Shown here in pieces: positions 4,522-43,966 of a stretch of DNA of 64,000 nt. How positions within the stretch are numbered: position 1 is the first letter of the stretch; the number at the start of each line of letters is the position of its first letter. The DNA lies in IMG/VR virus record IMGVR_UViG_3300029305_003884, positions 64,001 to 128,000 of that record. One strand, 5' to 3'. Origin of the DNA: a virus (taxonomy: Duplodnaviria > Caudoviricetes). The position numbers and the translations under genes are program-made. The notes beneath the pieces are model-generated. The model searched no databases and was not told the DNA's origin. It saw only the letters and a list, made by a program, of their open reading frames with translations.

Positions 4522-5910
4522 CTAATTGTAGATATGGAGGTTCTTTGCCGCACGGGTAAATGCGGTATATTTCAACTTATTCCTCTGGATGACATCCCAG
4601 TCACAGATGTTGATGTCCTTTTCGACAACGTAAACATTGTCGATTGTGGAGCCCTGGGCCTTGTGGATAGTCATTGCATAGCTGTAATTGACGTAGCAGA
4701 ACGAGTCGATGAAGTCATAGAACTCCTGCCAGACCTCATGTCTGTTATGGACAGGTATGCCAGTCATGGGGTTCACTTCGGCACACAGGGTCTTGGCCTT
4801 TCCGATAAGCTGTCTTTTAACAGCCATGTACGTGCTATATCCTTCGGAAGAAAGAACCTTGATGTGGCGGAGTTCCCTCTTGTTGGATGCTGCCATGTAG
4901 TTATCGACAAGCAGACTCCAGACAACAATACCAGTACCATCTTCGACATACTTGGTCGCTTCCTTCACCAGCAGTCGTTCACCATTGGCGTAAACCTGCA
5001 GTTTCTTCTCGCCAGCAAGAGCAACGCTGTAACCTTCTGTCACAATAAGGTCGTCACCTGCGGTGTATTCCTGAACATCATTACCGAAGATGTGGCGTCT
5101 GATAAAGCTGTTTGACTTGTCCACGGCATTGTTCGTGTAGGCAAGGAGACGGCAGAAGTTCTTGTTCTCCTTGTACTCGTCGGACATGAAGTCGGCAAAC
5201 AGGTTATCAAAGAACGGTTTCTTCATTGTGTAGAAACGGACGCCTTCTCCCCTATCGTTCACACGGTCTACATGGTCGAAGCAGTCCTCCACACGGAGCA
5301 TATTCCTGGGGTCACGGATTGGCGTGACAAGCCCGATGATTGGGTTGTCGGCAGAAACACGCATGACCTGGGTCAAACGGAAAAGGTTCGGGACTCGGGT
5401 AAATACAACCGATGCCTGGAAATTGACAGGCGGCAGCTGTGCCTCGTCTCCGACATAAAGGATTTTCATTTTAGGAAATTCACGCAGGACGCTCTGAATC
5501 ATTTCATAACATTCATCGTTAACCATCGACGCTTCGTCAATGACGATGAGACGGTACTTGCCAGCGTGGCACTTACCGTCACGAACAAGAACCTTGCCAT
5601 GGTCCTCATTCTGTTCCAGTTTGAGCCCAAGCAATCCGCTGATAGTCTTGTCATAGTTCTTACCGCTTCTCTGCGAAAGAACACGCACCGCTTCATTGGT
5701 GTAGGCGGTGCAGTATACCTTGATTTTCTTAAATTCTCGACTCAGTTCCTTCAAGAACACATTGAGGAGGGAGGTCTTTCCAGTGCCAGCGGCCCCGGCC
5801 AAGACCATCTCCCGCTGGGAGTCGTCATGCATAAAAGCAAGCATTTCAGCCAACCCCTTGCGCTGGTCGGGGCTGAGCTGTTTCTTTGTAATTAGATTTG
5901 AGTGACTCAT
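4522..5910 (-). CDS. dda: Dda-like SF1B DNA helicase
   Basis: Walker A GAAGTGKT, DEASM, GDEAQLPPV, YAMTIHKAQGST, YTAFTRA. Confidence 0.9.
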   Translation of the reverse strand: MSHSNLITKKQLSPDQRKGLAEMLAFMHDDSQREMVLAGAAGTGKTSLLNVFLKELSREFKKIKVYCTAYTNEAVRVLSQRSGKNYDKTISGLLGLKLEQNEDHGKVLVRDGKCHAGKYRLIVIDEASMVNDECYEMIQSVLREFPKMKILYVGDEAQLPPVNFQASVVFTRVPNLFRLTQVMRVSADNPIIGLVTPIRDPRNMLRVEDCFDHVDRVNDRGEGVRFYTMKKPFFDNLFADFMSDEYKENKNFCRLLAYTNNAVDKSNSFIRRHIFGNDVQEYTAGDDLIVTEGYSVALAGEKKLQVYANGERLLVKEATKYVEDGTGIVVWSLLVDNYMAASNKRELRHIKVLSSEGYSTYMAVKRQLIGKAKTLCAEVNPMTGIPVHNRHEVWQEFYDFIDSFCYVNYSYAMTIHKAQGSTIDNVYVVEKDINICDWDVIQRNKLKYTAFTRAAKNLHIYN

Positions 5911-22572: not shown

Positions 22573-22709
22573 CCATTTTAACAAAAAAGCCTCCATTTTA
22601 AGGCTTTTTTCATTTCAATGCAGATTTTGAGGTAAAAAAATTTTTGTGAAAATACCTCAATAAACTTAAAGTAGAACTCAAACAGTGCCAGGTGGCACAG
22701 GATAACAAT

Positions 22710-24200
22710 ATGCAACAGTTCAGACCTAAGTCAGCTACGAGCAAGTGGGCTCCGATTTTGGAATCCAACCTTGGCCGTAAGCTCAAGTCCCGTGCTGAAG
22801 CTTCTGTGGTTTCCACTCTTCTCGAAACCCAGTGCAAGCTCAACAAGGGTTTCCTCCCCGAATCTGCTAACGTCTCTGCAGACGTGGCTCAGTACCAGCA
22901 GTACGCTTTGCCGCTGGTGCGTCGTCAGTTCCCTGACCTCCTCGCTATGCAGACCGTGGCAACCATTCCAACAACAACTCCTAACGGAATTTACTTCGCA
23001 CTTCGTTTCCTCTATGACGACGAAGCTCCGAAGACTGTTGGTTTCCGTAAGGGCCTGAAGAAAGAAATCGGTTACGACCTCGTTGCCGACCATACTGGTG
23101 TGAAGGGCACGTTCAACCCGTGGACAACGACCGCTGGTGAAATGCTTTCCAACTATGCCGAAGGTACGTTCGGTGGCCCGTCTTTCGATGGCGCTGCTAT
23201 GAACTCTCAGAACGGTGCTGGTCACGCTTACGTTACCAACCACTGGGCTGACAAGCCGGGCTATGGCGACTACTACGATGAAGCCGAAGGTCACTACAAC
23301 ATCAAGAAGGCCAGCATCAAGGTGGTGTCTGGTGCTATCCGTGTTGGTACCAAGGCTATCAAGAGCCATTACACCCTCGAACTCCAGCAGGATATGGCTG
23401 CTGCTCACGGCCAGGACGTTGAAGCCCTGTTGCTCGAAGGCTTGCAGTTTGAAATCCAGCAGGAAATCGACCGTGAAATCCTCGCTGCTATGGTGTCTGT
23501 CGCTCAGAACCCTGCATTCGGTGGTGAAGCTGCTATCACCGTTGACCTCTCTGGTCACGCAAACTTCCAGGATGGCCGTTGGGTCGCCGAAAAGATTGCT
23601 GGTGGTATCGTGAACACGATTATCGCCGTTGCCCGTAAGATTTCTCTTACGACCCGTATGGGCTCTGGTAACTTCGCAATCTGCTCTCCGAGCATCGTTG
23701 CTGCAATCTCTACCCTTAACTCTGGTATCTATATCCCGACTTACCTCGGTACGGATGCCGCTGTTCAGCCGGGTGGTGGCGTTTCCGACGCTGGTTCTCT
23801 CCTGAGCGGTCAGATTAAGCTCTACCAGGATATCTACTCTTGGCAGGACTACGCTCTCGTTGGTTACAAGGGACCTCGTCAGGGCGAATCTGGTATCATC
23901 TTCATGCCTTACATCCCGTACATCTTCTGCAAGACCGCTGGTCAGGAAGACGGTAGCCCACGTCTCATCGTGAAGAGCCGTTACGCCATTGTCAGCAACT
24001 TGCTCGGTTGCGGCCTGTTCTACCGTGTTGTTCGCTTCGTGAACAACGACCTCTTGGGTGTTTCCTTCACTGGCGACATTCCTTGGGAATCTAACGAAGG
24101 TCCTACTGTGGGCGTAACCCTCGACACCGTTGGTGTTGCAGTTGGTGGCCACACGCTCGACCGTCCGTTCGGTACGGCTGCTCAGGAAGAAGAGTGGTAA
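22710..24200 (+). CDS. gp23: Major capsid protein
   Basis: KW.PILE, LPLVRR.FP.L.A, P.G..FALR..Y, K.HYTLELQQD..A.HG.D.E, EI..EIDREI, VGYKG, PYIP, SRY; AGGA RBS before ATG 22710. Confidence 0.96.
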   Translation: MQQFRPKSATSKWAPILESNLGRKLKSRAEASVVSTLLETQCKLNKGFLPESANVSADVAQYQQYALPLVRRQFPDLLAMQTVATIPTTTPNGIYFALRFLYDDEAPKTVGFRKGLKKEIGYDLVADHTGVKGTFNPWTTTAGEMLSNYAEGTFGGPSFDGAAMNSQNGAGHAYVTNHWADKPGYGDYYDEAEGHYNIKKASIKVVSGAIRVGTKAIKSHYTLELQQDMAAAHGQDVEALLLEGLQFEIQQEIDREILAAMVSVAQNPAFGGEAAITVDLSGHANFQDGRWVAEKIAGGIVNTIIAVARKISLTTRMGSGNFAICSPSIVAAISTLNSGIYIPTYLGTDAAVQPGGGVSDAGSLLSGQIKLYQDIYSWQDYALVGYKGPRQGESGIIFMPYIPYIFCKTAGQEDGSPRLIVKSRYAIVSNLLGCGLFYRVVRFVNNDLLGVSFTGDIPWESNEGPTVGVTLDTVGVAVGGHTLDRPFGTAAQEEEW

Positions 24201-24271: not shown

Positions 24272-25534
24272 CTAAGTGTCTTTAGCGGCTTTGATTCTAC
24301 ATGTATCAACCAATCGTCTAGCTTGTTCAAGCATCCATTCACCATCCGAACGCCGATAACGTATATCGCTTGTACAAGCTCCAGATTCTGACGGTTTCAT
24401 TATGAATTCCACACGGCAATACTGAAATTTCATATCATCTACCGTTGGAATAAAAACGCAAACAATAGAGCCATCATTATTTTCATTGAAAAAGGTAAGA
24501 CTAATAATACTGTTATTATATACCATGGCGGCTGAACATCGTATACCACAATTACCTTTTTCAGCATTATTCATTAATGTCTGTATAATTTGTTTAGTTA
24601 TATTATCCATTTGTGGATAATTAACAGTTGATGTATCATTTTCGACTAAACCTTGAATATACTTTGATACATTTCCGCATAACGCTCCTTTATACTTAGC
24701 ATGTTCATACAATTTAGGTGACATGGACACTGTCAAAACCTTTCTACCATTATCAAATTCGGATATTATTTTAGAGTTTACATACGAAAAACTAGCCAGT
24801 TGAGAAAGCTTTCCAAATCGCATACCAGTACAGCATCGTGTAACGCTTGATGTACTATAACGCTTAACAAGGAAATGTCCATCTTCATTCTTGATATATA
24901 TGAATCCAAATTTACTTAAGTCGTCCGGCAAGCCAACCACCTCATTAGACATGCATTGCAAACTAAAAGAAAGTTCATCGAAAACAATCTCCGTACGACG
25001 GTCATTCATTAAGTACATGAACGTACAATCGAATGCATCACACAGACCAACATTATAACAATATTTCACACCATTCTCTATACGAGTGACCCGAGATTTC
25101 GCTAATGCATATACATCATTGCTATCTACAACTGTTGACGGATGGCATAACCTAAACTTTAAAGAAAATTCTTCTGTCCTATACCCAATGAATGCACTCC
25201 ATGATTTACCAACTGCATAAAAAAACGAAATAGCAAGTTCTTGTTTAGCTTCTGTATATGTATCACACGTGGCGGCATTTGTATATACATGCTCTGTATT
25301 TAGTTCATATATGCACCATGGGTCACACGACGGATATTCACAACCACCTATTCGTCCTACCAGAAATGAAGTTCTGAGAACAACGTCGGTTGTTTTCGCC
25401 CACAGAGTATCAACGGTTATTATTTCGTGTGGTTTAATATCTGGTGGCAAATTGATTCCTTCATATTGTAAACCATATGCGGACTTCCGCGACACAATTC
25501 TATATAAAAAACTATGCTCTGTATTGTTATTCAT
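24272..25534 (-). CDS. AT-rich hypothetical protein with an internal ribbon-helix-helix-like segment
   Basis: LTVSMSPKLYEHAK..G...NVSKYIQGLVE; AGGAG RBS; promoter ATGACA-N17-TATATT at 25563-25591. Confidence 0.55.
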   Translation of the reverse strand: MNNNTEHSFLYRIVSRKSAYGLQYEGINLPPDIKPHEIITVDTLWAKTTDVVLRTSFLVGRIGGCEYPSCDPWCIYELNTEHVYTNAATCDTYTEAKQELAISFFYAVGKSWSAFIGYRTEEFSLKFRLCHPSTVVDSNDVYALAKSRVTRIENGVKYCYNVGLCDAFDCTFMYLMNDRRTEIVFDELSFSLQCMSNEVVGLPDDLSKFGFIYIKNEDGHFLVKRYSTSSVTRCCTGMRFGKLSQLASFSYVNSKIISEFDNGRKVLTVSMSPKLYEHAKYKGALCGNVSKYIQGLVENDTSTVNYPQMDNITKQIIQTLMNNAEKGNCGIRCSAAMVYNNSIISLTFFNENNDGSIVCVFIPTVDDMKFQYCRVEFIMKPSESGACTSDIRYRRSDGEWMLEQARRLVDTCRIKAAKDT

Positions 25535-25665: not shown

Positions 25666-26250
25666 ATGACCTCAGAATACGCACTAGATGTATTTACCAA
25701 GTCCGCCGAACAGATACTTACCTCCAAGGTACAATTGGAAGCGGTAACAGATTTGGCAAAGACGTTACTTGAATTTGCCGACCCAAGAAACGATGTAAAC
25801 CATCCGTCCTGTTCGTCAGGTCTTCTCATCACGGATGGAAAGGTATTCCTAGCAGAACTCCCGACAGGCAACAAGAAAGGCAAGCCGCATCAGTATGACC
25901 TTCCAAAGGGTCACGTTGAAAACGATGGCGAATCCGTAAAGGATGCCGCTTTCAGGGAAGCCTTGGAGGAAACTGGGTATAACTGGCATAAGTATTACAA
26001 CGATGCCAAGGGAATCTTCCGCAAGCAAGTGCCATTCCGTAAAGGAAACAACCTGATGTTATACAGGATAAATCTGAAAGAACTTCCTCCCCTGACATCC
26101 TATTCCTGCAAGTCCTACTTCCATGACCCTAAGAAGAACGCCGCCATACCCGAAGCATGCTCCTACGAGTACCTCCCGTTGAAGGAAATCGGAAAGTGGC
26201 TGTGGCCCGAGTTCGACAAGACCTTCAAGAGGGAAGGAATCAAGTTCTAA
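25666..26250 (+). CDS. NUDIX hydrolase, late paralogue with N-terminal leader
   Basis: LPKGHVE...AAFREALEETG NUDIX box; late box at 25632-25640. Confidence 0.88.
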   Translation: MTSEYALDVFTKSAEQILTSKVQLEAVTDLAKTLLEFADPRNDVNHPSCSSGLLITDGKVFLAELPTGNKKGKPHQYDLPKGHVENDGESVKDAAFREALEETGYNWHKYYNDAKGIFRKQVPFRKGNNLMLYRINLKELPPLTSYSCKSYFHDPKKNAAIPEACSYEYLPLKEIGKWLWPEFDKTFKREGIKF

Positions 26251-26251
26251 A

Positions 26252-26267
26252 TGTTTCACGTGAAACA
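26252..26267. promoter_or_regulatory. parS: parS site (ParB/Spo0J binding palindrome)
   Basis: TGTTTCACGTGAAACA is an exact match to the bacterial chromosomal parS consensus TGTTNCACGTGAAACA; intergenic. Confidence 0.75.
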
Positions 26268-26271
26268 TTAG

Positions 26272-26299
26272 AAAAGCCCCCGTGAAACACGGAGGCTTT
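26272..26299. terminator. Bidirectional terminator between convergent genes
   Basis: AAAAGCCCCCGTG-AAA-CACGGAGGCTTT. Confidence 0.65.
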
Positions 26300-26317: not shown

Positions 26318-27664
26318 TTATTTAGAAGGCGCTATCTTCGCCTTGATTTTCTTCTTTACAAGATTAGCATTCGGCAATTCTTTGGGTGTGATAGGAATTT
26401 CAGGAACTTCCTCTTCTTTAGGAATTACTGGACGGTCATCCGTCTTTATCTCCGAGGCATCCTTCTTCAAGTTTTCCTCGGTTAACGAAGCTTCCGCTTC
26501 CTTCATTGCATCGTTTCCAGGTATTGCGGGAGATTTAGCCAAGTCGTTGCATTTATCCAGCATGTCCGTCATTTTACCTACGGATTCCTTTGCATCAATA
26601 CTTTCCAGGTATTGCTTTGTCATGGCAGCTTGGACTAAGTCTTGCGGAGTTTTCGGCAAGTCCATCTGCTTAACCATAAATTCATCTGGCTTCGGGCTAA
26701 AGAAATTGTCCATCGAGGCTTTTAAATCCTTTCCGACACTAACCCCACGTTGCGACATGACACGTTGACTTTCATACTGACACTCAGCAATAGCCTTAGC
26801 TCTCATGCCTTCATTCTCGTCGACGGCATCGTTGAAAGCCTTGAGTGCAACTGGATTACCTTTAAGTTCTTCGATAATGAATTTCTTTCCAACGTCATTC
26901 GGCTGGAAGTTGAGATAGGTGCGAGCAAAAGTTAGACCAATGAGCTTATTGGACACCTCGCTCATAGAACCAGGTTTACCCATAAGAGTCATCTCGTTCA
27001 ATGCTTTTGTAAGAGACTCGATTTCCCGTTCTATTTTACCGTTGCTCAGATTCTGACAAATACCAAGGGATGGATTCATCTTCTGCACATTGGTTTTAGC
27101 TGCATCAAGAGCCGTCGGGTGTTCCTTAACCAGATTGGAAATCGGCTCTGGGTGTCCATCAGCGGTGTCAACCATGGTTTTCATCCGTAGTGGGACATTC
27201 TTGTTATAATCCATGCCAAAATAATCGGGATTCGATTCAAGATTCACTTTCTGGTTCGGCTTCATAAACGGGTCAGCCAAGATGGTAGCTTCCGACGGGA
27301 CATTGCCATTCAACTGCTGGAAAGTGTAGTCCTGCATGTTGCAGAACTGGTTCGGGCCAGAAGGTATCGGGCGTTGCTTATCATGCCATGGTTCCTTCGG
27401 GTTCATAATCGGCTTGAAACCGAGACCACCGTACCTTTCTGGCTGTCTGACCAGCACAGGCGGCGGGCTAAATTGCTGTGGCGGGAAGGTCTGGCTCGGC
27501 GTAGGCGGAATAGGCGGCACCTGCGACGGCACTTGCTGCGGAGATTGTGGAGCAGCATGTTCTTCCTTGTAGATATGCTTTACCGTGGCACCGACATCAT
27601 AAAGAGCCTTCGCCAGGAATTCCATTATGTTTAGGTATTTATCGTTGTTCATTTTTGCCTCCAT
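26318..27664 (-). CDS. Hypothetical Pro/Gln-rich, largely disordered protein
   Basis: Long ORF in the minus-strand operon; low-complexity N-terminus. Confidence 0.65.
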   Translation of the reverse strand: MEAKMNNDKYLNIMEFLAKALYDVGATVKHIYKEEHAAPQSPQQVPSQVPPIPPTPSQTFPPQQFSPPPVLVRQPERYGGLGFKPIMNPKEPWHDKQRPIPSGPNQFCNMQDYTFQQLNGNVPSEATILADPFMKPNQKVNLESNPDYFGMDYNKNVPLRMKTMVDTADGHPEPISNLVKEHPTALDAAKTNVQKMNPSLGICQNLSNGKIEREIESLTKALNEMTLMGKPGSMSEVSNKLIGLTFARTYLNFQPNDVGKKFIIEELKGNPVALKAFNDAVDENEGMRAKAIAECQYESQRVMSQRGVSVGKDLKASMDNFFSPKPDEFMVKQMDLPKTPQDLVQAAMTKQYLESIDAKESVGKMTDMLDKCNDLAKSPAIPGNDAMKEAEASLTEENLKKDASEIKTDDRPVIPKEEEVPEIPITPKELPNANLVKKKIKAKIAPSK

Positions 27665-28709: not shown

Positions 28710-29837
28710 TTATTTCTTGCTGAGATACAGTAACAGCAGGTTGAATCCGTAGCAGATGCAACATGCAACAAACAGCATGTCCACTGGTAGACCTTTGAGG
28801 AAGAGCGATGCAATGCCAGCGATACCCCAAGCGCTCAACGTCAACGAGTGTATCGTAGATGTATTCGTTATCCCGTACTTGCTTGCAAGCAGTGCAGGCA
28901 ATGCAGAAAATCCACCGCCATAACATGCGTTGATGAGCATGACGCTGACGACGAACACACCAAGTCCGCCGACGCCGAAGTTCACCAGGCACAGCAGAGA
29001 ACTCAATGCAAAGAGGATTACATACGGAACATACCGTCCGAACTTGTCGCTAACCCAAGCAAAACCAAATCGGCCACCAGCGTTGAACACGGCACTCAAT
29101 GTACAAAGCGCAGTCGCCATCCCGAGCGCCACACCGTAGTGGGAATACAACTGGGCTTCCTGACTGATGAAGGCAAGGCCGCAAGCGATGTTGATGAAGA
29201 AGAACAGCCAAATCGAGATGTATGGCAACGTCCGTACCGTCTTCCCGATATTGATTGTCTCGACCGTAGGCGGCTTGTAGTTGACAGGGAACTTCCTGAA
29301 CAGGAACGATGTCACGATAAGCGGAACCGTATAGATTAAGGCAAGAAGGAAGAACACCTGGTCGATAGCGAAGTTCGAAGTCATGTAGGTATACAACGGG
29401 CTCGCAACAGACTTTGACAACCCGAAGGACAGGATGGCTATTGCTGATGCGACCGCCTTGTTATGACGGAAGTACAGCATCAGGGTTTTAATCGGCGCCA
29501 CATATCCGAGGCCACATGAGCACCCGAAAAGGCATCCGTAGGCCAGATAGAATAGCCAGACACTTCCTATGCTGCAGGCCACCCCGCTTAGGACAAATCC
29601 ACCCACGAAGAAAATCACCGATAGGATATATGTTGCCTTCGGGTTCTTCTCGACGAACTTTCCCATGAATGCTGCAGACAGTCCGAGGAACAGGATTGCA
29701 AGAGAGAATGCAAACGACATGTCATGGTTGAGAACAGCGTTGACAGCATTAGAGAGAAGAGACCAGGCATATACCTGGCCAATGCATAAAGAAAGAAGGA
29801 CGGTTGCAAGCACCGTCCTGATTTGTAGAATTTTCAT
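28710..29837 (-). CDS. MFS transporter, OFA (oxalate/formate antiporter-like) family
   Basis: G.VYAWS, FS..I..LGLSAA..G..VE, G.GY.AP.KTL..YF, FNA.GR..F...SD..GR, YGGGFS.LPA; many TM helices. Confidence 0.85.
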   Translation of the reverse strand: MKILQIRTVLATVLLSLCIGQVYAWSLLSNAVNAVLNHDMSFAFSLAILFLGLSAAFMGKFVEKNPKATYILSVIFFVGGFVLSGVACSIGSVWLFYLAYGCLFGCSCGLGYVAPIKTLMLYFRHNKAVASAIAILSFGLSKSVASPLYTYMTSNFAIDQVFFLLALIYTVPLIVTSFLFRKFPVNYKPPTVETINIGKTVRTLPYISIWLFFFINIACGLAFISQEAQLYSHYGVALGMATALCTLSAVFNAGGRFGFAWVSDKFGRYVPYVILFALSSLLCLVNFGVGGLGVFVVSVMLINACYGGGFSALPALLASKYGITNTSTIHSLTLSAWGIAGIASLFLKGLPVDMLFVACCICYGFNLLLLYLSKK

Positions 29838-29865
29838 ATTGACGTCTTGGCTTTGCACCAAGAGT

Positions 29866-30849
29866 TTATAGGGTCTCGTCGATATCAGTAGGCACCTGGA
29901 AGGTGCCGTCGAGCTGTTGCTGGATATACTTGATAGCCTTGGTAATCATTTCCATTGCAGCAGTTTCGTCGACAGCCTGACCGCCACATGAAAGCGGATG
30001 GCCACCCATAGACACGGCGCCAGGAGTAGTTTTCTCGATTACCTTTGCAAACTTGTCAAAGGAAATCTTCTTGTTGTAACCACGGAACATCAGGCCAATG
30101 TTGTTGCAGCGGGTGTTATGATAAATGTTGACCCAGTAGTTGTATTTACCCGTATCTTCGATACGGACACCGACTTCGGTGGAGCGCTTGTCACAATGAG
30201 TAAGCACACCGCCACCAGGGAGGTCTGTAAATTGAAGTTGACCATAGATATCATTGACTTCGCCTTCGATGCTCTCGATAATACGGAGGTCGTCTTCGGA
30301 GAAATCAGTATGGCCATCCTTGTAAGCTTCCATCCACGGTTCAAATTTCAGGTTATACTTGGCCTTGAAGAGCATGTTCAGACGGAATGCATGTTCAAAG
30401 CGTTCCTTGTCAGTTTTAACCCAGCGGTCAAACGTATCGATGTAACCGATGAGTTCTTCAAGGTAGGAAATATCCTTGACATCACGGTAGAAATCATAGG
30501 TCAGACGTGAGCCGCAAGCAGACTTGTCAATAAAGATGCAATTAGACGGGTCGTTGAGTCCTTCCACGCTACCATGATGGTCCAAAACCATGAACGGAAT
30601 GCGAGTTGCACGGACACGGTCCATGAAATCGGCAGGTGTGTAATCAGTAAACACGATTGCGTTGTACAGTTCCATGTTGGGGATGCTACTGAAAGTCAGT
30701 ATATCCTTTTCCTTGCCGTAGAACATCTTCGCATACTTTGCGTTAGGATAGATGGTCTTAACTACTAGATGGGAACCTACTCCATCAAGGTCATTGTGGG
30801 TGCAGTTAAGCACGTTCAGGTTGGGGTTTTTGAAGTATTGGATATCCAT
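29866..30849 (-). CDS. DHH/DHHA1 phosphoesterase (NrnA/NrnB-like)
   Basis: THNDLDG, FTD, LDHH and GGH motifs. Confidence 0.85.
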   Translation of the reverse strand: MDIQYFKNPNLNVLNCTHNDLDGVGSHLVVKTIYPNAKYAKMFYGKEKDILTFSSIPNMELYNAIVFTDYTPADFMDRVRATRIPFMVLDHHGSVEGLNDPSNCIFIDKSACGSRLTYDFYRDVKDISYLEELIGYIDTFDRWVKTDKERFEHAFRLNMLFKAKYNLKFEPWMEAYKDGHTDFSEDDLRIIESIEGEVNDIYGQLQFTDLPGGGVLTHCDKRSTEVGVRIEDTGKYNYWVNIYHNTRCNNIGLMFRGYNKKISFDKFAKVIEKTTPGAVSMGGHPLSCGGQAVDETAAMEMITKAIKYIQQQLDGTFQVPTDIDETL

Positions 30850-30869
30850 GATTTTAGTCCTTTTCGTTA

Positions 30870-30898
30870 AATATAGTTTATTAAATCTGTGTTGTCAA
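30870..30898 (-). promoter_or_regulatory. Sigma70-type promoter TTGACA-N17-TATATT (DHH gene)
   Basis: Reverse complement reads ttgaca-acacagatttaataaac-tatatt. Confidence 0.7.
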
Positions 30899-32425
30899 GG
30901 TCTTGTCAGCAATAAAAATGTCTTCGATGAACGCTTCCATGCATTCCTGTTCGGTAAAGGTAGGAATCTGCAGTTCCGTCAAGGCATCGTCAAAGATTTT
31001 CTTGGCACGCTCGGCATACTCTTCTGCCACGATGATGCTGTCATGTACTGTGCATACAGGGCAATGCAGTTCGTCCTTGATTCTGCGGTAAACGATGCTG
31101 AAAATCAGGTGGCTTTCGGTGCGTTGCAGTTCATGTGCCAGCTCAGCGTAGTGCCCACGCTTGATAATCTGGATTGCCTTGTACAGGTTGGGGAACTTTT
31201 CCTTCCAGAGCTTCTGAATTGCGCCAACCAACTTGTGCTTCTTTCTCGAATAGAACTTGCCGCAGAATAGGCAAGTAAGGAATTCCTTCTTCACCTTATT
31301 GCGGTCTACGTTGATATGTAAAGTTTTGTTTACATAGCTAAGAAAAAATTCGTACAGACTGCCGCTAACAAGCAGATTGCGGTAAACTTCCAATTCTTTA
31401 TGGAAATTATCCACGCAATCCCAAGTATCCTCCACTTTCCAGTATGCCTCCGCAAACCCACCTATAGGGAAAATCACAATATGTTCTCGGCCATCAAATT
31501 TAGAAATATATCGGTCAAGCACACGGTACAGGAATGCGCCCTGGGAGCTCTTGATGTCTATTTCGACCGTCGGCTTGCCATCGCAGGAGATGCAGCTCTT
31601 TCGCACTTCCTTCTTCATCTGGGTTATATTCGTGTGTACACGCCCGTATGCATCACGTTTGCAATAAAGAGCGTATTTATCGGTCGAATAACTGTTGAAA
31701 AGCTTAACTTTGTTCATTTCAGACGTCATTCTTTCAGGAGGAATAGCGCCATTTGACACCATTTCGCCCAAAATGTCATGACTTTTCTGCTCGTCTATGC
31801 TGAAATGGGTCAAGTCTTCGTAAAGTTCCTTGATTTCAGGCAATTTCATTTGTTCGCAATGAACTTCTTCGGCTCTTTCTGCAAGTTTTCTGTACAAAAT
31901 GGGGTTTGTGACCATGACGACACGTACTCCACCCTGTCTTTTTGCGATATCGCCAGCCTCTTCTTGTGCCCTGGTGTGCAAATATCGTTGCACATAGCTC
32001 AAAAACTCCTTCGTGAACCAATAATGCTTGCATTTTCCAGGAACATCCTTTGTACCCTTGATGTAAGAGCGGCTCCTACCGATTACTCCCCACTGTTCAA
32101 GGATATTGACGTAGTCCAAGTAGTTGGAACCGAGTATCCTGTCGTAGATTTTCGAGTAGATTGGGACAGCCCACTTGTCAATATCGATTGACCAATGGTG
32201 CTTTATAGCCATGTTGAAGGCCATCTGGTAACGTCGGTAGACTGTATTCACGATGTAGACCAGAAATTCGAAATTTTTCCTATGCACTCCATCCAAAGTC
32301 TCAGATTTAGCCATCAAATACTCGAAAATACGGTTAGGAACCAGCATCTTATCGAAGGAATAATGGCTGTCTGACTCAGAAAATTGGTCTAAAATACGTA
32401 AAGAAAGTGCAAGTTTCGAACTCAT
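30881..32425 (-). CDS. Family-A polymerase / T7-RNAP-like palm protein (TV-Pol-like)
   Basis: YGRVHT, motif A VEIDIKSSQ, motif B R..VK....LF.G, LQ..ES, motif C TVHDS. Start moved to 32425 because a promoter lies at 32433-32461. Confidence 0.65.
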   Translation of the reverse strand: MSSKLALSLRILDQFSESDSHYSFDKMLVPNRIFEYLMAKSETLDGVHRKNFEFLVYIVNTVYRRYQMAFNMAIKHHWSIDIDKWAVPIYSKIYDRILGSNYLDYVNILEQWGVIGRSRSYIKGTKDVPGKCKHYWFTKEFLSYVQRYLHTRAQEEAGDIAKRQGGVRVVMVTNPILYRKLAERAEEVHCEQMKLPEIKELYEDLTHFSIDEQKSHDILGEMVSNGAIPPERMTSEMNKVKLFNSYSTDKYALYCKRDAYGRVHTNITQMKKEVRKSCISCDGKPTVEIDIKSSQGAFLYRVLDRYISKFDGREHIVIFPIGGFAEAYWKVEDTWDCVDNFHKELEVYRNLLVSGSLYEFFLSYVNKTLHINVDRNKVKKEFLTCLFCGKFYSRKKHKLVGAIQKLWKEKFPNLYKAIQIIKRGHYAELAHELQRTESHLIFSIVYRRIKDELHCPVCTVHDSIIVAEEYAERAKKIFDDALTELQIPTFTEQECMEAFIEDIFIADKTLTTQI

Positions 32426-32624
32426 CGGCGATAAAATAAAATTAAAATCGGGTTTTGTCAAGTACCTACTCAAATGAAATCCACATTTGCACCCCATTTA
32501 CCAAGGATAACACTATATGTTCTCACTTTTTGATATTAAAATATAAACTTAGGCTGTAAAAAAGATATTTTAGTTTAGAAAAACATCATTTTTTTTTCTC
32601 AACCCTAGTTTATTCACTCAGATT

Positions 32625-34382
32625 ATGAAAGTTTACTTCGATTTCCTTAAAGATAACTCGGCTGTCGTCAACGTCTATGACGGCACCCCAACTGAAATCA
32701 ATCGAGTATATGCCTACCTTAACACTTGCATCAAGTATGAGGACAAGCAGGCCACCTACACCGAAAAGTACAAGAACGGATACAAGAAGGAATACGTCAA
32801 TTTTTACGACAAGGATGAACGGACCGTGCCCATCGGTCTGATTGCTAGGGTGTGCGACATGTTGAAGGGTAAGTTCCCGACGATGCAAATCGGGATGTCG
32901 TCCCTGTCCCCGAGGATTCAGTCGATGTTCACGCCGAAGGTCGTATTGAGCAGGGAGGACATCATCAAGTACGCCGAGACGCTCAACATCCACGACCGCA
33001 AGGAGGGGTTCAAGCTCAGTCTATATGACCATCAGGTTGAACTCATCTATCAGGCCATGCTGCACCGACGTGGTTCGTTGAAGGCCTGCACAGCCTCTGG
33101 AAAGTCACTGTCCATCTATGTGATGGCGAGGTACATGACCGAGGTCGAACACAAGAAGATTGCCATAGTCGTTCCGAACTCGGGCCTCGTGGTCCAGTTG
33201 ATGGAAAACTTCTACGACGACTACTCCTGGGACGAGGCGCACGAGAACTGTACCCTAATCTACGGGGACTCCAAGGACAAGCTGACTGCCTCACAGAAAA
33301 AGAAGCTGGCTGAACTGCACCTTGGCGAGGAAGTGATGTTGAAGCCTATCGTCATCACGACTTGGCAGAGTCTGCAGAACAAGGAGCCGTCCTTCTTCAA
33401 GCGGTTCGATGCGGTTATCGTTGACGAATGCCAGGGATGCCGTGGTCCAGTCCTCCGTAAGATTCTCGACTATTGCACGTCGGCGGAGAACTTCAAGATA
33501 GGCGTTTCGGGTACGATTCCGAAGGAAGGCCTTGAAGCAGCCTGCATCGAGGCGTCTCTTGGAAAGAGGTACGAGATTGTCAGCCTGTGGCAGCTTGCCG
33601 AGAAGAAGCTTATCTGTCCTGTGAAGGTGGTCGGCCTGTTCGTTCCGTATCCGCTGGATTGCCGAACGACCATCTGCTACTCGAAGTTCGATGAGGAGTA
33701 TTCAATCGTGACTGGCAACCGCAGTCGGTACGACATCCTCGACATGCTCATCAACAACAAGATGATAACGACGGAGCAGAACACGGTTATTCTTTTCCGA
33801 AACATCGACCCGCTGGAACGAGTCGCCGCATACTTGCAGGAACATCATCCAGAGTTCAAGTACAGCATCATCAAGGGAGACGTAAAGGCCGTCGAGAGAA
33901 ACAAAATCCGTGCCGAAATGGATTCATCTTACGGGCACATTCTTCTCGGCACATACGGCTGTCTCCAAGCGGGAATGAACGTGAAGAAGTTGAACAACCT
34001 TGTTTTCGGCGACCCAGGAAAGTCGATGTACATGATTATGCAGTCGATTGGCCGTATCGTCCGTAAGTGCAACGGCAAGGAAATCGCAACCTGTTACGAC
34101 ATCGTTGACGACGCTTCGTACATGGTACATGGTCGCAAGCTGGGTGACCACATCAACGAGAACTGCATGGTTCGTCACTTCCGTGAAAGGATGAATTACT
34201 ACGATGATGACAAGATTCCTGTAACCACGGTCGACCTCACGGGTATAGTCGAGGCCGATGTCAAGCTCGACGATATCAAGCAGAAGAGAAAGGAGAAGGC
34301 GGAGAAGCGTGCGGCCCAGATGGAGAAAAAGAAAAAGAAGGCCGCAGAGGGCCTTCTGAAAAACTACCGCAGGCAGTTCTAG
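32625..34382 (+). CDS. uvsW: UvsW-like SF2 helicase
   Basis: TASGKS, TTWQSL, DECQ, SGT, QSIGR..R, YDIVDD; late-type box TATAAACTT at 32542-32550. Confidence 0.9.
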   Translation: MKVYFDFLKDNSAVVNVYDGTPTEINRVYAYLNTCIKYEDKQATYTEKYKNGYKKEYVNFYDKDERTVPIGLIARVCDMLKGKFPTMQIGMSSLSPRIQSMFTPKVVLSREDIIKYAETLNIHDRKEGFKLSLYDHQVELIYQAMLHRRGSLKACTASGKSLSIYVMARYMTEVEHKKIAIVVPNSGLVVQLMENFYDDYSWDEAHENCTLIYGDSKDKLTASQKKKLAELHLGEEVMLKPIVITTWQSLQNKEPSFFKRFDAVIVDECQGCRGPVLRKILDYCTSAENFKIGVSGTIPKEGLEAACIEASLGKRYEIVSLWQLAEKKLICPVKVVGLFVPYPLDCRTTICYSKFDEEYSIVTGNRSRYDILDMLINNKMITTEQNTVILFRNIDPLERVAAYLQEHHPEFKYSIIKGDVKAVERNKIRAEMDSSYGHILLGTYGCLQAGMNVKKLNNLVFGDPGKSMYMIMQSIGRIVRKCNGKEIATCYDIVDDASYMVHGRKLGDHINENCMVRHFRERMNYYDDDKIPVTTVDLTGIVEADVKLDDIKQKRKEKAEKRAAQMEKKKKKAAEGLLKNYRRQF

Positions 34383-42454: not shown

Positions 42455-43966
42455 ATGGTAGTAGCAGACTTAAACGATGAAGAATATGTCCTGCGGTGTT
42501 TCTTTGAAGATGAAAATGTCCGTCTGCGTATAACGGACAAGATAAAAGAAGAGAATTTTGAAGATAAGGCGGACAAGCAGATTGTCCACCTCGTTCACTC
42601 GTTTAATAGAAAGTATGGTCGTTATCCTACTGCACAGGAACTTGTAACTGGATTAAATCAGAACCCAGGATACAGCGATGAAGCCAAGGAACAGCTCCTG
42701 AAGATTACTAAGCCTATTGGCGTTATCGCACCAGACGTTAAGAAGAAAATCATTGAGGATTATTTCAAGTTCAAGGTGTCACAGAGGCTTATGGAGGAAT
42801 ATGCCCTCCACATGCACGGAAAGGACCCGAATGCAATGCGTGGTATCATGCCGAAGTTGCAGGATGCGTTGAACTTCAAGCTGAGTACAAACATGGGTAT
42901 TCACTACATCCGTGACGCTAAGTTCGCAAAGTCGAAGCTCGGTGACATGGAAAAGAGTATCCCTTCCAAGATTGGTGCAATCAGGCAATACACAAGTGAA
43001 GCTCCTGAATCTCAGGGAACTTGCGGTGGATATTTCCGCAAGTGTTTGAGCGTTGTCGGTGGTACATCTGGTGGCGGTAAATCCATGTTCATGGTGAACG
43101 AGGCTGCCTTTGCTGCAACCTTGGGCTACAACGTGGTTTACATCAGTCTTGAACTTGATGCCGCCAAGATTTGGGAACGTGTCACTAGCTCGTTGCTCAA
43201 TGTTTCCCGTTACGACATTGCCAAGATGACGGATGAGGAAGTTATCGTCAAGTTGCAGGATACACACGACCCGTCGATAACTGCTCCTGGAAACCTGTAT
43301 ATCAACTGGATGCCTACCCGTAAGACGACGCCTGACGATATCGAGGGTTACCTGAACGAACTGGAACAGGTGGAAGGCGTAAAGATTGACTTCCTTGTGG
43401 TTGACTATATCGGTATTATCAGTCCGAACGCAGGTACATACAGTTCGTATGACGGAAGCTACCAGAAAATTCTGTATGCTGCCGAACAGTTGAGAAACAT
43501 GGCCGTCAACAGGGATATGGCTGTTCTTACTGGAACCCAGATGCAGCGTGCTGGCTACCGTATGAAGGATATCGGCATGGACCAGACGGCTGGTTCCATG
43601 GGTCTTGGCGATACGGCTGACGTCTACTACATCATTGTCCATGACGTTGCGTTAAAGCGTGCTGGCTTCCTGACTGTCACGATAGGAAAGAACCGAATGG
43701 GCTCGTCGGATGTCCAGTTCAACGTGAGGGTCGACTGGCCGCACATGTGTATCAGCGATGTTCTACCAGAGGATGCCGACATTATCAATAGCATAATGAT
43801 GGAATCCATTGCACAGGAAGCGATGGCGGCGAACGGGCAGCGGAGGCCGCCACAAGTACAACAGCCTCAGCAACCGCAGCTGCAGCAGCCACAGGAGCAA
43901 CCTCGGAAGAAAAAGGAGAAGCCGATAGACCCATCGTTTGCCAATGTGGCCCAGAACTACTTTTAA
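42455..43966 (+). CDS. gp41: Replicative DnaB-like helicase
   Basis: GGGKS Walker A, YISLE, VVDY, TGTQ..R, S.GL..TAD, KNR.G. Confidence 0.9.
   Translation: MVVADLNDEEYVLRCFFEDENVRLRITDKIKEENFEDKADKQIVHLVHSFNRKYGRYPTAQELVTGLNQNPGYSDEAKEQLLKITKPIGVIAPDVKKKIIEDYFKFKVSQRLMEEYALHMHGKDPNAMRGIMPKLQDALNFKLSTNMGIHYIRDAKFAKSKLGDMEKSIPSKIGAIRQYTSEAPESQGTCGGYFRKCLSVVGGTSGGGKSMFMVNEAAFAATLGYNVVYISLELDAAKIWERVTSSLLNVSRYDIAKMTDEEVIVKLQDTHDPSITAPGNLYINWMPTRKTTPDDIEGYLNELEQVEGVKIDFLVVDYIGIISPNAGTYSSYDGSYQKILYAAEQLRNMAVNRDMAVLTGTQMQRAGYRMKDIGMDQTAGSMGLGDTADVYYIIVHDVALKRAGFLTVTIGKNRMGSSDVQFNVRVDWPHMCISDVLPEDADIINSIMMESIAQEAMAANGQRRPPQVQQPQQPQLQQPQEQPRKKKEKPIDPSFANVAQNYF

Follow-up and report, generated by a model that had tools for sequence, protein, structure and literature searches.

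Phages of a rumen clade with T4-like genomes of about 420 kb carry the parS sequence of bacterial chromosomes in one or two copies next to their inferred replication origin, and the most likely function that these sequences suggest for it is the loading of the host's ParB protein. The parS site is a real feature under selection. As to its mode of action, we lean, with rather more confidence than doubt, toward a functional, cis-acting and centromere-like site at which the chromosomal ParB of the host would be loaded onto the phage genome. Several lines of evidence point to this reading: the exact match to parS at 16 of 16 positions; the conservation of the site in phages that encode no ParA, ParB or SMC and that, where their genomes are complete, possess it at a single locus; its position close to the origin, as is found for chromosomal parS sites; the finding that the candidate host family possesses parAB, SMC and the same parS sequence; the precedent set by phage phi29; and an excess of perfect parS sites in viral contigs, with no ParB_N domain in most of those tested.

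The parS site and its surroundings

The DNA that we analyzed (64,000 nucleotides, referred to as the window) comprises bases 64001-128000 of a 178-kb (178042 nt) IMG/VR virus record with a CheckV completeness of 42%, which we label G000. The sequence TGTTTCACGTGAAACA matches the canonical chromosomal-type parS, tGTTNCACGTGAAACa, perfectly; it is the sole match in the window at up to three mismatches, and it forms the core of a perfect 20-bp palindrome, AATGTTTCACGTGAAACATT (Table 1). An earlier note on this DNA had reported both the site and the palindrome between convergent genes, and our analysis confirms them. parS begins two bases past the stop codon of a NUDIX hydrolase gene, and the intergenic gap in which it resides is bounded by this stop codon on one side and by a terminator and a convergent 448-aa open reading frame (ORF) on the other.

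Table 1. Features in and around the parS locus; positions are those of the window
Feature	Position	Strand	Basis or remark
Gp23-type major capsid protein	22692..24200	+	PF07068, E 9e-64
NUDIX hydrolase gene	25666..26250	+	PF00293, E 1e-9; phrog_1185
20-bp perfect palindrome around parS	26250..26269	no strand	conserved block is aA-parS-t
parS, TGTTTCACGTGAAACA	26252..26267	no strand	exact match and conservation in close relatives
Bidirectional intrinsic terminator, A-tract and T-tract	26273..26299	no strand	hairpin; its loop region holds 26281-26289
ORF of 448 aa with Pro/Gln-rich linker, convergent to the NUDIX gene	26318..27664	-	no family assigned
Cumulative GC-skew trough, inferred bidirectional origin	29000..33000	no strand	3-7 kb from parS

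In the entire 178-kb record, no further parS-like sequence with three or fewer mismatches was detected, the next-best matches having four. A given palindromic 16-mer is expected about 4e-5 times in a record of this size (178042/4^16), and the parS palindrome is the only perfect palindrome of at least 16 bp within it. Shorter palindromes are less frequent than in shuffled sequences (12-mers, 16 observed vs 33.7; 14-mers, 2 observed vs 7.5), and the hexamer CACGTG is depleted as well (7 observed vs 39 expected).

The Gp23-type major capsid gene bears out the designation of this phage as T4-like in the earlier note; a megablast search against cultured phages gave no match. Another ORF without a family match (420 aa; window 24272-25534, minus strand) is located between the capsid and the NUDIX genes. 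In most of the close relatives, the NUDIX gene directly follows the capsid gene, and parS is found about 700 bp past the capsid stop codon vs 2052 bp here. The 448-aa neighbor was considered as a DNA-binding protein; it has no match in Pfam, PHROG or PDB and no DNA-binding signature, and this candidate was therefore rejected.

Conservation of the site among relatives

Relatives were fetched with the NUDIX, 448-aa and capsid proteins as queries and stem from ruminant and other metagenomes; two of the genomes, 419 and 422 kb in size, possess terminal repeats and are complete, the 419-kb genome being IMGVR_UViG_3300021400_000141 (G001). Down to a capsid protein identity of 81%, all relatives with a contig of sufficient length have retained parS at the same spot, just downstream of the capsid(-NUDIX) unit, and all 15 NUDIX-bearing relatives that were found carry it directly downstream. 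Hence, conservation in relatives, which the earlier note had named as a check, holds for all close relatives. The site is kept despite differing flanks, neighboring genes and GC contents (38-49%). In a subclade represented by G004 (GC 41%, NUDIX protein 78% identical), for instance, parS is present within intergenic flanks and next to a terminator that are unrelated to ours, and at locus L242 (GC 38%) it directly follows the capsid terminator. Its persistence at one place within diverged flanks, and across this range of base compositions, argues for purifying selection on parS.

Fifteen distinct 44-bp contexts allowed us to delimit the conserved block. Thirteen of the 16 core positions are invariant, and only positions 5 (T/C), 8 and 9 vary; of the flanks, positions -2, -1 and +1 also show conservation, which breaks down further out. 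Position 5 is the known degenerate T/C position of parS. The change of T to C at this position, encountered in four loci and uncompensated on the other arm, yields TGTTCCACGTGAAACA, the other variant present on Fibrobacteraceae chromosomes.

The two complete genomes contain a single parS locus with one or two sites, and the relatives' full records are free of any further parS-like site with up to one mismatch, apart from the tandem copy within the same locus. Where such a copy exists, one of the two tandem sites is perfect and the central CG of the other has been replaced by TG or CA, so that its center reads CATGTG or CACATG. The tandem pairs are located at 4588 and 4627 in L005/L006 and at 4587 and 4626 in L009/L011; their centers are thus 39 bp apart in both haplotypes, with unrelated spacers and with the opposite order of the two sites. 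Equal spacing combined with unrelated spacers suggests that these duplications arose independently under a spacing constraint. In relatives at 57-71% capsid protein identity, no site was detected out to 8 kb from the capsid gene, and five large records from this group, one of them a 260-kb record rated 91% complete, lack a site anywhere; the absence from more distant relatives makes parS a trait that defines a subclade.

These data bear on the simplest alternative, namely that the site occurs by chance or is a neutral remnant of bacterial chromosomal DNA. A few chance 16-mers are to be expected when very many windows are scanned. Against this stand the retention of the same spot in the 15 distinct contexts with their diverged flanks, the apparently independent duplication of parS in relatives, and the survival of parS in a genome from which CACGTG and palindromes in general have been purged. 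Judged from these conservation data, an origin by chance or as a remnant appears to be effectively refuted.

The conserved locus also invites an explanation at the level of RNA, according to which a 3' hairpin would stabilize or terminate the highly expressed late capsid-NUDIX transcript. The site is indeed placed at the 3' end of this operon, it can fold as a hairpin of 8-10 bp, and the palindromes of relatives are extended to 18-36 bp. However, a canonical terminator follows immediately, the palindrome is not followed by a U-tract, and conservation is just as strong in the would-be loop, ACGU, as in the stem. Moreover, the change at position 5 breaks a stem pair without compensation in each of the four loci, which argues against an RNA stem and in favor of a site on DNA. 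A search of Rfam returned nothing near the gathering scores, and a known RNA family was consequently rejected. As the identity to parS would be left unexplained as well, we regard a function as an RNA element as very unlikely.

The terminator itself had been proposed in the earlier note to contain a further parS half-site, CGTGAAACA (26281-26289). This sequence is present within the terminator hairpin, of which it covers the loop and the adjoining end of the 5' arm; it is, however, not conserved. Relatives read CGTGTAACA, CGTATAACA or CGTGGAACA in this stretch (GTGTAAC, GTATAAC, GTGGAAC) or possess a different terminator, as do members of the G004 clade. Since the stretch varies or the terminator has been replaced, we rejected a second half-site at this position and take the resemblance to be a coincidence of this particular genome.

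One property of the locus does not fit smoothly with a pure ParB-binding site. In this phage clade, the parS core is always embedded in a longer palindrome of 18-36 bp, whereas the parS sites of the candidate host chromosomes lack such an extension beyond the 16-bp core. This difference counts against reading the element as a ParB site and nothing else, and hints at an additional or alternative role of the longer palindrome as a hairpin or cruciform. The longest version occurs in a distant subclade (L018/L019, at about 4590-4625; G004:C1, at about 202.3 kb), in which CATATTAAAATGTTTCAC followed by GTGAAACATTTTAATATG forms a perfect palindrome of 36 bp with parS at its center.

Partition genes, candidate host and replication origin

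A site of this type needs a ParB protein, and the phages do not seem to provide one. Searches with the Pfam models ParB_N, HTH_ParB, AAA_31 and CbiA found nothing real in our record and four relatives, two of them complete; the same holds for the NCBIfam SMC models in our record and the four relatives, both complete genomes included. Likewise, a phmmer search with the ParA and ParB proteins of Fibrobacteraceae metagenome-assembled genomes (MAGs) against all ORFs of at least 50 aa from G000 and G001 yielded nothing. A weak CbiA match was considered as a ParA candidate and rejected, as it corresponds to the Walker-A/P-loop of a gp41/DnaB-like replicative helicase. This helicase (window 42455-43966, plus strand) has a long Gln/Pro-rich basic C-terminal tail. 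The statement that the window contains no recognizable parA or parB was thus correct, and it is equally true of the entire record and of both complete relatives (419 and 422 kb). A self-contained ParABS cassette of the P1/N15 type requires linked parA and parB genes, neither of which was detected in these complete genomes.

A pointer to the host came from an MFS transporter gene (window 28710-29861, minus strand) whose closest counterparts, at 70-71% identity, reside in two MAGs, one assigned to Fibrobacteraceae and one to Fibrobacter; the next-best matches, from Enterococcus and halophilic Bacillaceae, are about 33% identical. The gene beside the homologue in the Fibrobacteraceae MAG is not phage-like. 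As the MFS gene was found in just two of 61 Fibrobacteraceae genomes, a firm host assignment through this gene was rejected, and we tentatively consider Fibrobacteraceae as the host family. One relative's 317-kb contig has been binned in a MAG labeled Bacteroidaceae, which also has chromosomal parS sites. Neither Fibrobacteraceae nor Bacteroidaceae are known to sporulate.

Both of the MAGs with the MFS homologue contain a parA-parB pair with parS at a distance of 1.5-2 kb, and SMC as well. Exact TGTT[T/C]CACGTGAAACA sites, one to four of them clustered on one contig, are present in 28 of the 41 Fibrobacteraceae genomes that we sampled; control matches in these 41 genomes amounted to zero. The T and C variants at position 5 found in this family are the same two that occur in the phage clade. 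As to the parS of the predicted host, a further check suggested by the earlier note, the tentative host family carries exactly the sequence under study beside a parAB operon. The idea that the phage DNA recruits host ParB stands insofar as parS is conserved, phage ParA and ParB are absent and the tentative host family carries the matching site; the binding itself is a prediction. No observation points specifically to a carrier state, which the same note had thought this recruitment might support.

A side observation concerns the accessibility of the phage DNA. GATC does not occur once in G000 (178 kb) or in G001 (419 kb), and ACGCGT, ACTAGT, CCGCGG, GTCGAC and CGCGCG, each expected 60-120 times, are likewise absent from both; the G004 subclade (GC 41%) has 1050 GATC sites in 277 kb. 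We interpret the absence of these motifs from G000 and G001 as an extreme, host-specific avoidance of restriction sites, and it suggests that the phage DNA relies on site avoidance rather than on base modification. With unmodified bases, parS should be readable by ParB.

The absence of a phage ParB leaves room for another reading, in which the site would be the operator of a phage DNA-binding protein unrelated to ParB, for example a regulator of the origin region or of late genes, with the identity to parS being convergent or irrelevant. Most of the approximately 500 phage genes have no known function, and the conserved block of 19 bp (aA-parS-t) is slightly wider than the host sites. Such an operator would, however, leave three findings unexplained: the identity to parS at all 16 positions, the toleration of T or C at position 5 that mirrors exactly the variant of host chromosomes, and the frequency of parS among unrelated viral contigs, which is at least 60-fold that of a control palindrome. 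We therefore consider this possibility to be quite improbable.

The position of parS on the replicon lends itself to a comparison with chromosomal centromere sites. In G001, the cumulative GC skew is V-shaped, with a minimum at about 204 kb and a maximum at about 396 kb; parS is located at 201.5 kb. The skew is negative in the left arm and positive in the right arm for genes of both strands. As the arm effect holds irrespective of the gene strand, the skew is not merely transcriptional and should mark a bidirectional origin. Gene orientation in G001 also largely diverges from the skew minimum, resulting in a two-replichore, chromosome-like architecture in a T4-like phage. In our own record, the skew minimum falls at 93-97 kb and parS at 90.25 kb. 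Expressed as the distance between parS and the global minimum of the cumulative GC skew, the values are 2.5 kb for G001, 6.7 kb for our record and 9 kb for G004, which has a flat trough. parS is accordingly placed within about 1-2% of the genome length from an origin that we infer from a GC-skew curve with a broad trough, and appears to be origin-proximal on the phage replicon. The chance of such a proximity is about 0.03 for one genome, the three genomes being syntenic and not independent. Mimicry of oriC through DnaA boxes was also considered and rejected, as there is no cluster of DnaA boxes near the origin.

This position helps to judge whether the phage might titrate ParB, as the earlier note had proposed. 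In such a scheme, phage parS would act in trans as a sink or decoy that drains ParB from the host origin and cripples segregation or division of the host; SMC loading and ParA control would be drained along with ParB as the phage genomes multiply. The same sequence and host evidence that favors loading in cis would fit. Furthermore, ParB loading at parS is catalytic, as known from the biology of ParB and CTP, so that a large share of the ParB pool might be tied up once phage copies are numerous. A decoy, however, would not need a fixed position near the origin, yet this position is conserved across subclades; it would also profit from many sites, whereas the complete genomes have one locus with one or two. 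One site at a fixed position would make a poor decoy and fits a cis-acting role better. We therefore hold titration to be less likely than cis-acting loading, and unlikely altogether.

Proposed action of the site and comparison with known systems

Supposing that parS serves to load host ParB in cis, the following sequence of events can be envisaged. After injection of the phage DNA, host ParB dimers would recognize the 16-bp site, bind CTP, close as a clamp and slide onto the flanking phage DNA, and a partition-type complex would build up over a region that includes the nearby replication origin. By engaging host ParA, this complex could position or separate the phage replicons, and by engaging host SMC it could align and individualize the two 200-kb arms, so that a phage replicon of 420 kb would be handled like a small bacterial chromosome. 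ParA-driven spacing, SMC loading and polar anchoring are thus candidate roles of ParB at this site; ParB might also locally silence the DNA near the origin and the capsid operon. T4-like phages are classically strictly lytic, and this counts against a need for segregation.

A more far-reaching version of this proposal, which we put forward tentatively and hold to be possible but doubtful, is that these giant phages mimic a chromosome as a whole, with one bidirectional origin, skewed arms, a terminus opposite to the origin, and parS as the element that recruits ParB, SMC and ParA. As the phage genomes replicate, the host's SMC and ParA would then zip them up, individualize them and space them. 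Such handling might be required by very large phage genomes or by long infections that span cell divisions; sporulation would not be involved. Should host ParB indeed be loaded at the site, the segregation and condensin machinery of the cell would become a host factor for giant phages of the lytic type, beyond phi29 and Bacillus spores, and one could explain how a 420-kb viral genome that has neither a phage nucleus nor its own partition genes is organized in the cell.

Loading of host ParB by a phage through a host-type parS has so far been documented only for the small Bacillus phage phi29. According to the account given in PMC2731898, which cites Meijer et al. (2005, EMBO J 24:3647), this virulent phage carries five parS sites, and the Spo0J protein of the host is involved in the segregation of its genome into the prespore. 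Like phi29, the phages studied here have no ParA or ParB of their own and carry the parS of the host chromosome. They differ from it as follows: phi29 is a protein-primed podovirus of 19 kb with five sites, whereas the phages of our clade are T4-like myoviruses of about 420 kb with one locus (one or two sites) near the inferred origin. The documented purpose of the phi29 sites is the entrapment of the phage in the Bacillus spore, and neither several spread sites nor a sporulating host are found here. As the probable host, a Gram-negative rumen bacterium that we tentatively place in the Fibrobacteraceae, is not known to sporulate, the spore rationale cannot apply. This clade would accordingly represent a use of host parS of the phi29 type that differs in the kind of phage, genome size, number and position of sites, and host.

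Bacterial chromosomes with ParABS-dependent SMC loading provide the second point of comparison, as far as they are described by Livny et al. (2007; cited in PMC12704722). They share the 16-bp sequence with our phages, and in both cases the site is found within about 1-2% of the replicon length from a skew-defined origin on a bidirectionally skewed replicon; the phage replicon differs in having no parAB operon and in carrying one parS locus where chromosomes have several clustered sites. Centromere-like sites on phage genomes are also known from the plasmid prophages P1 (parABS) and N15 (sopABC) and from the parABS systems of mycobacteriophages (PMC7157519). Those cassettes combine their own ParA and ParB with private centromeres and serve stable lysogeny, whereas our phages carry the host's centromere sequence alone. 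SGI1, which hijacks the parABS system of IncC plasmids (PMC10954446), resembles our phages in being a mobile element that has only the cis-acting site and takes advantage of partition proteins whose genes it does not carry; the partners are an integrative island and a helper plasmid in that case, and a phage and a host chromosome in ours.

The occurrence of parS is not limited to this clade. An exact scan detected perfect parS in at least 119 IMG/VR contigs (loci L091-L209) vs two for the reversed control palindrome of the same composition; among the matches listed, none belongs to the clade described here. ParB_N is absent from 48 of 50 parS-bearing IMG/VR records tested. This strong excess of perfect parS in viral contigs without ParB suggests that the site reflects a general strategy and is more than a curiosity. 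If orphan parS sites beside strand switches or origins prove to be general in several unrelated phage groups, many phages would depend on host ParB, a dependency factor so far unrecognized. Two or more sites are present in 32 of the at least 119 contigs, again among the matches listed. A protein-primed PolB is encoded by genomes of 15-17 kb that have inverted terminal repeats and two to six parS sites, which marks these genomes as phi29-like.
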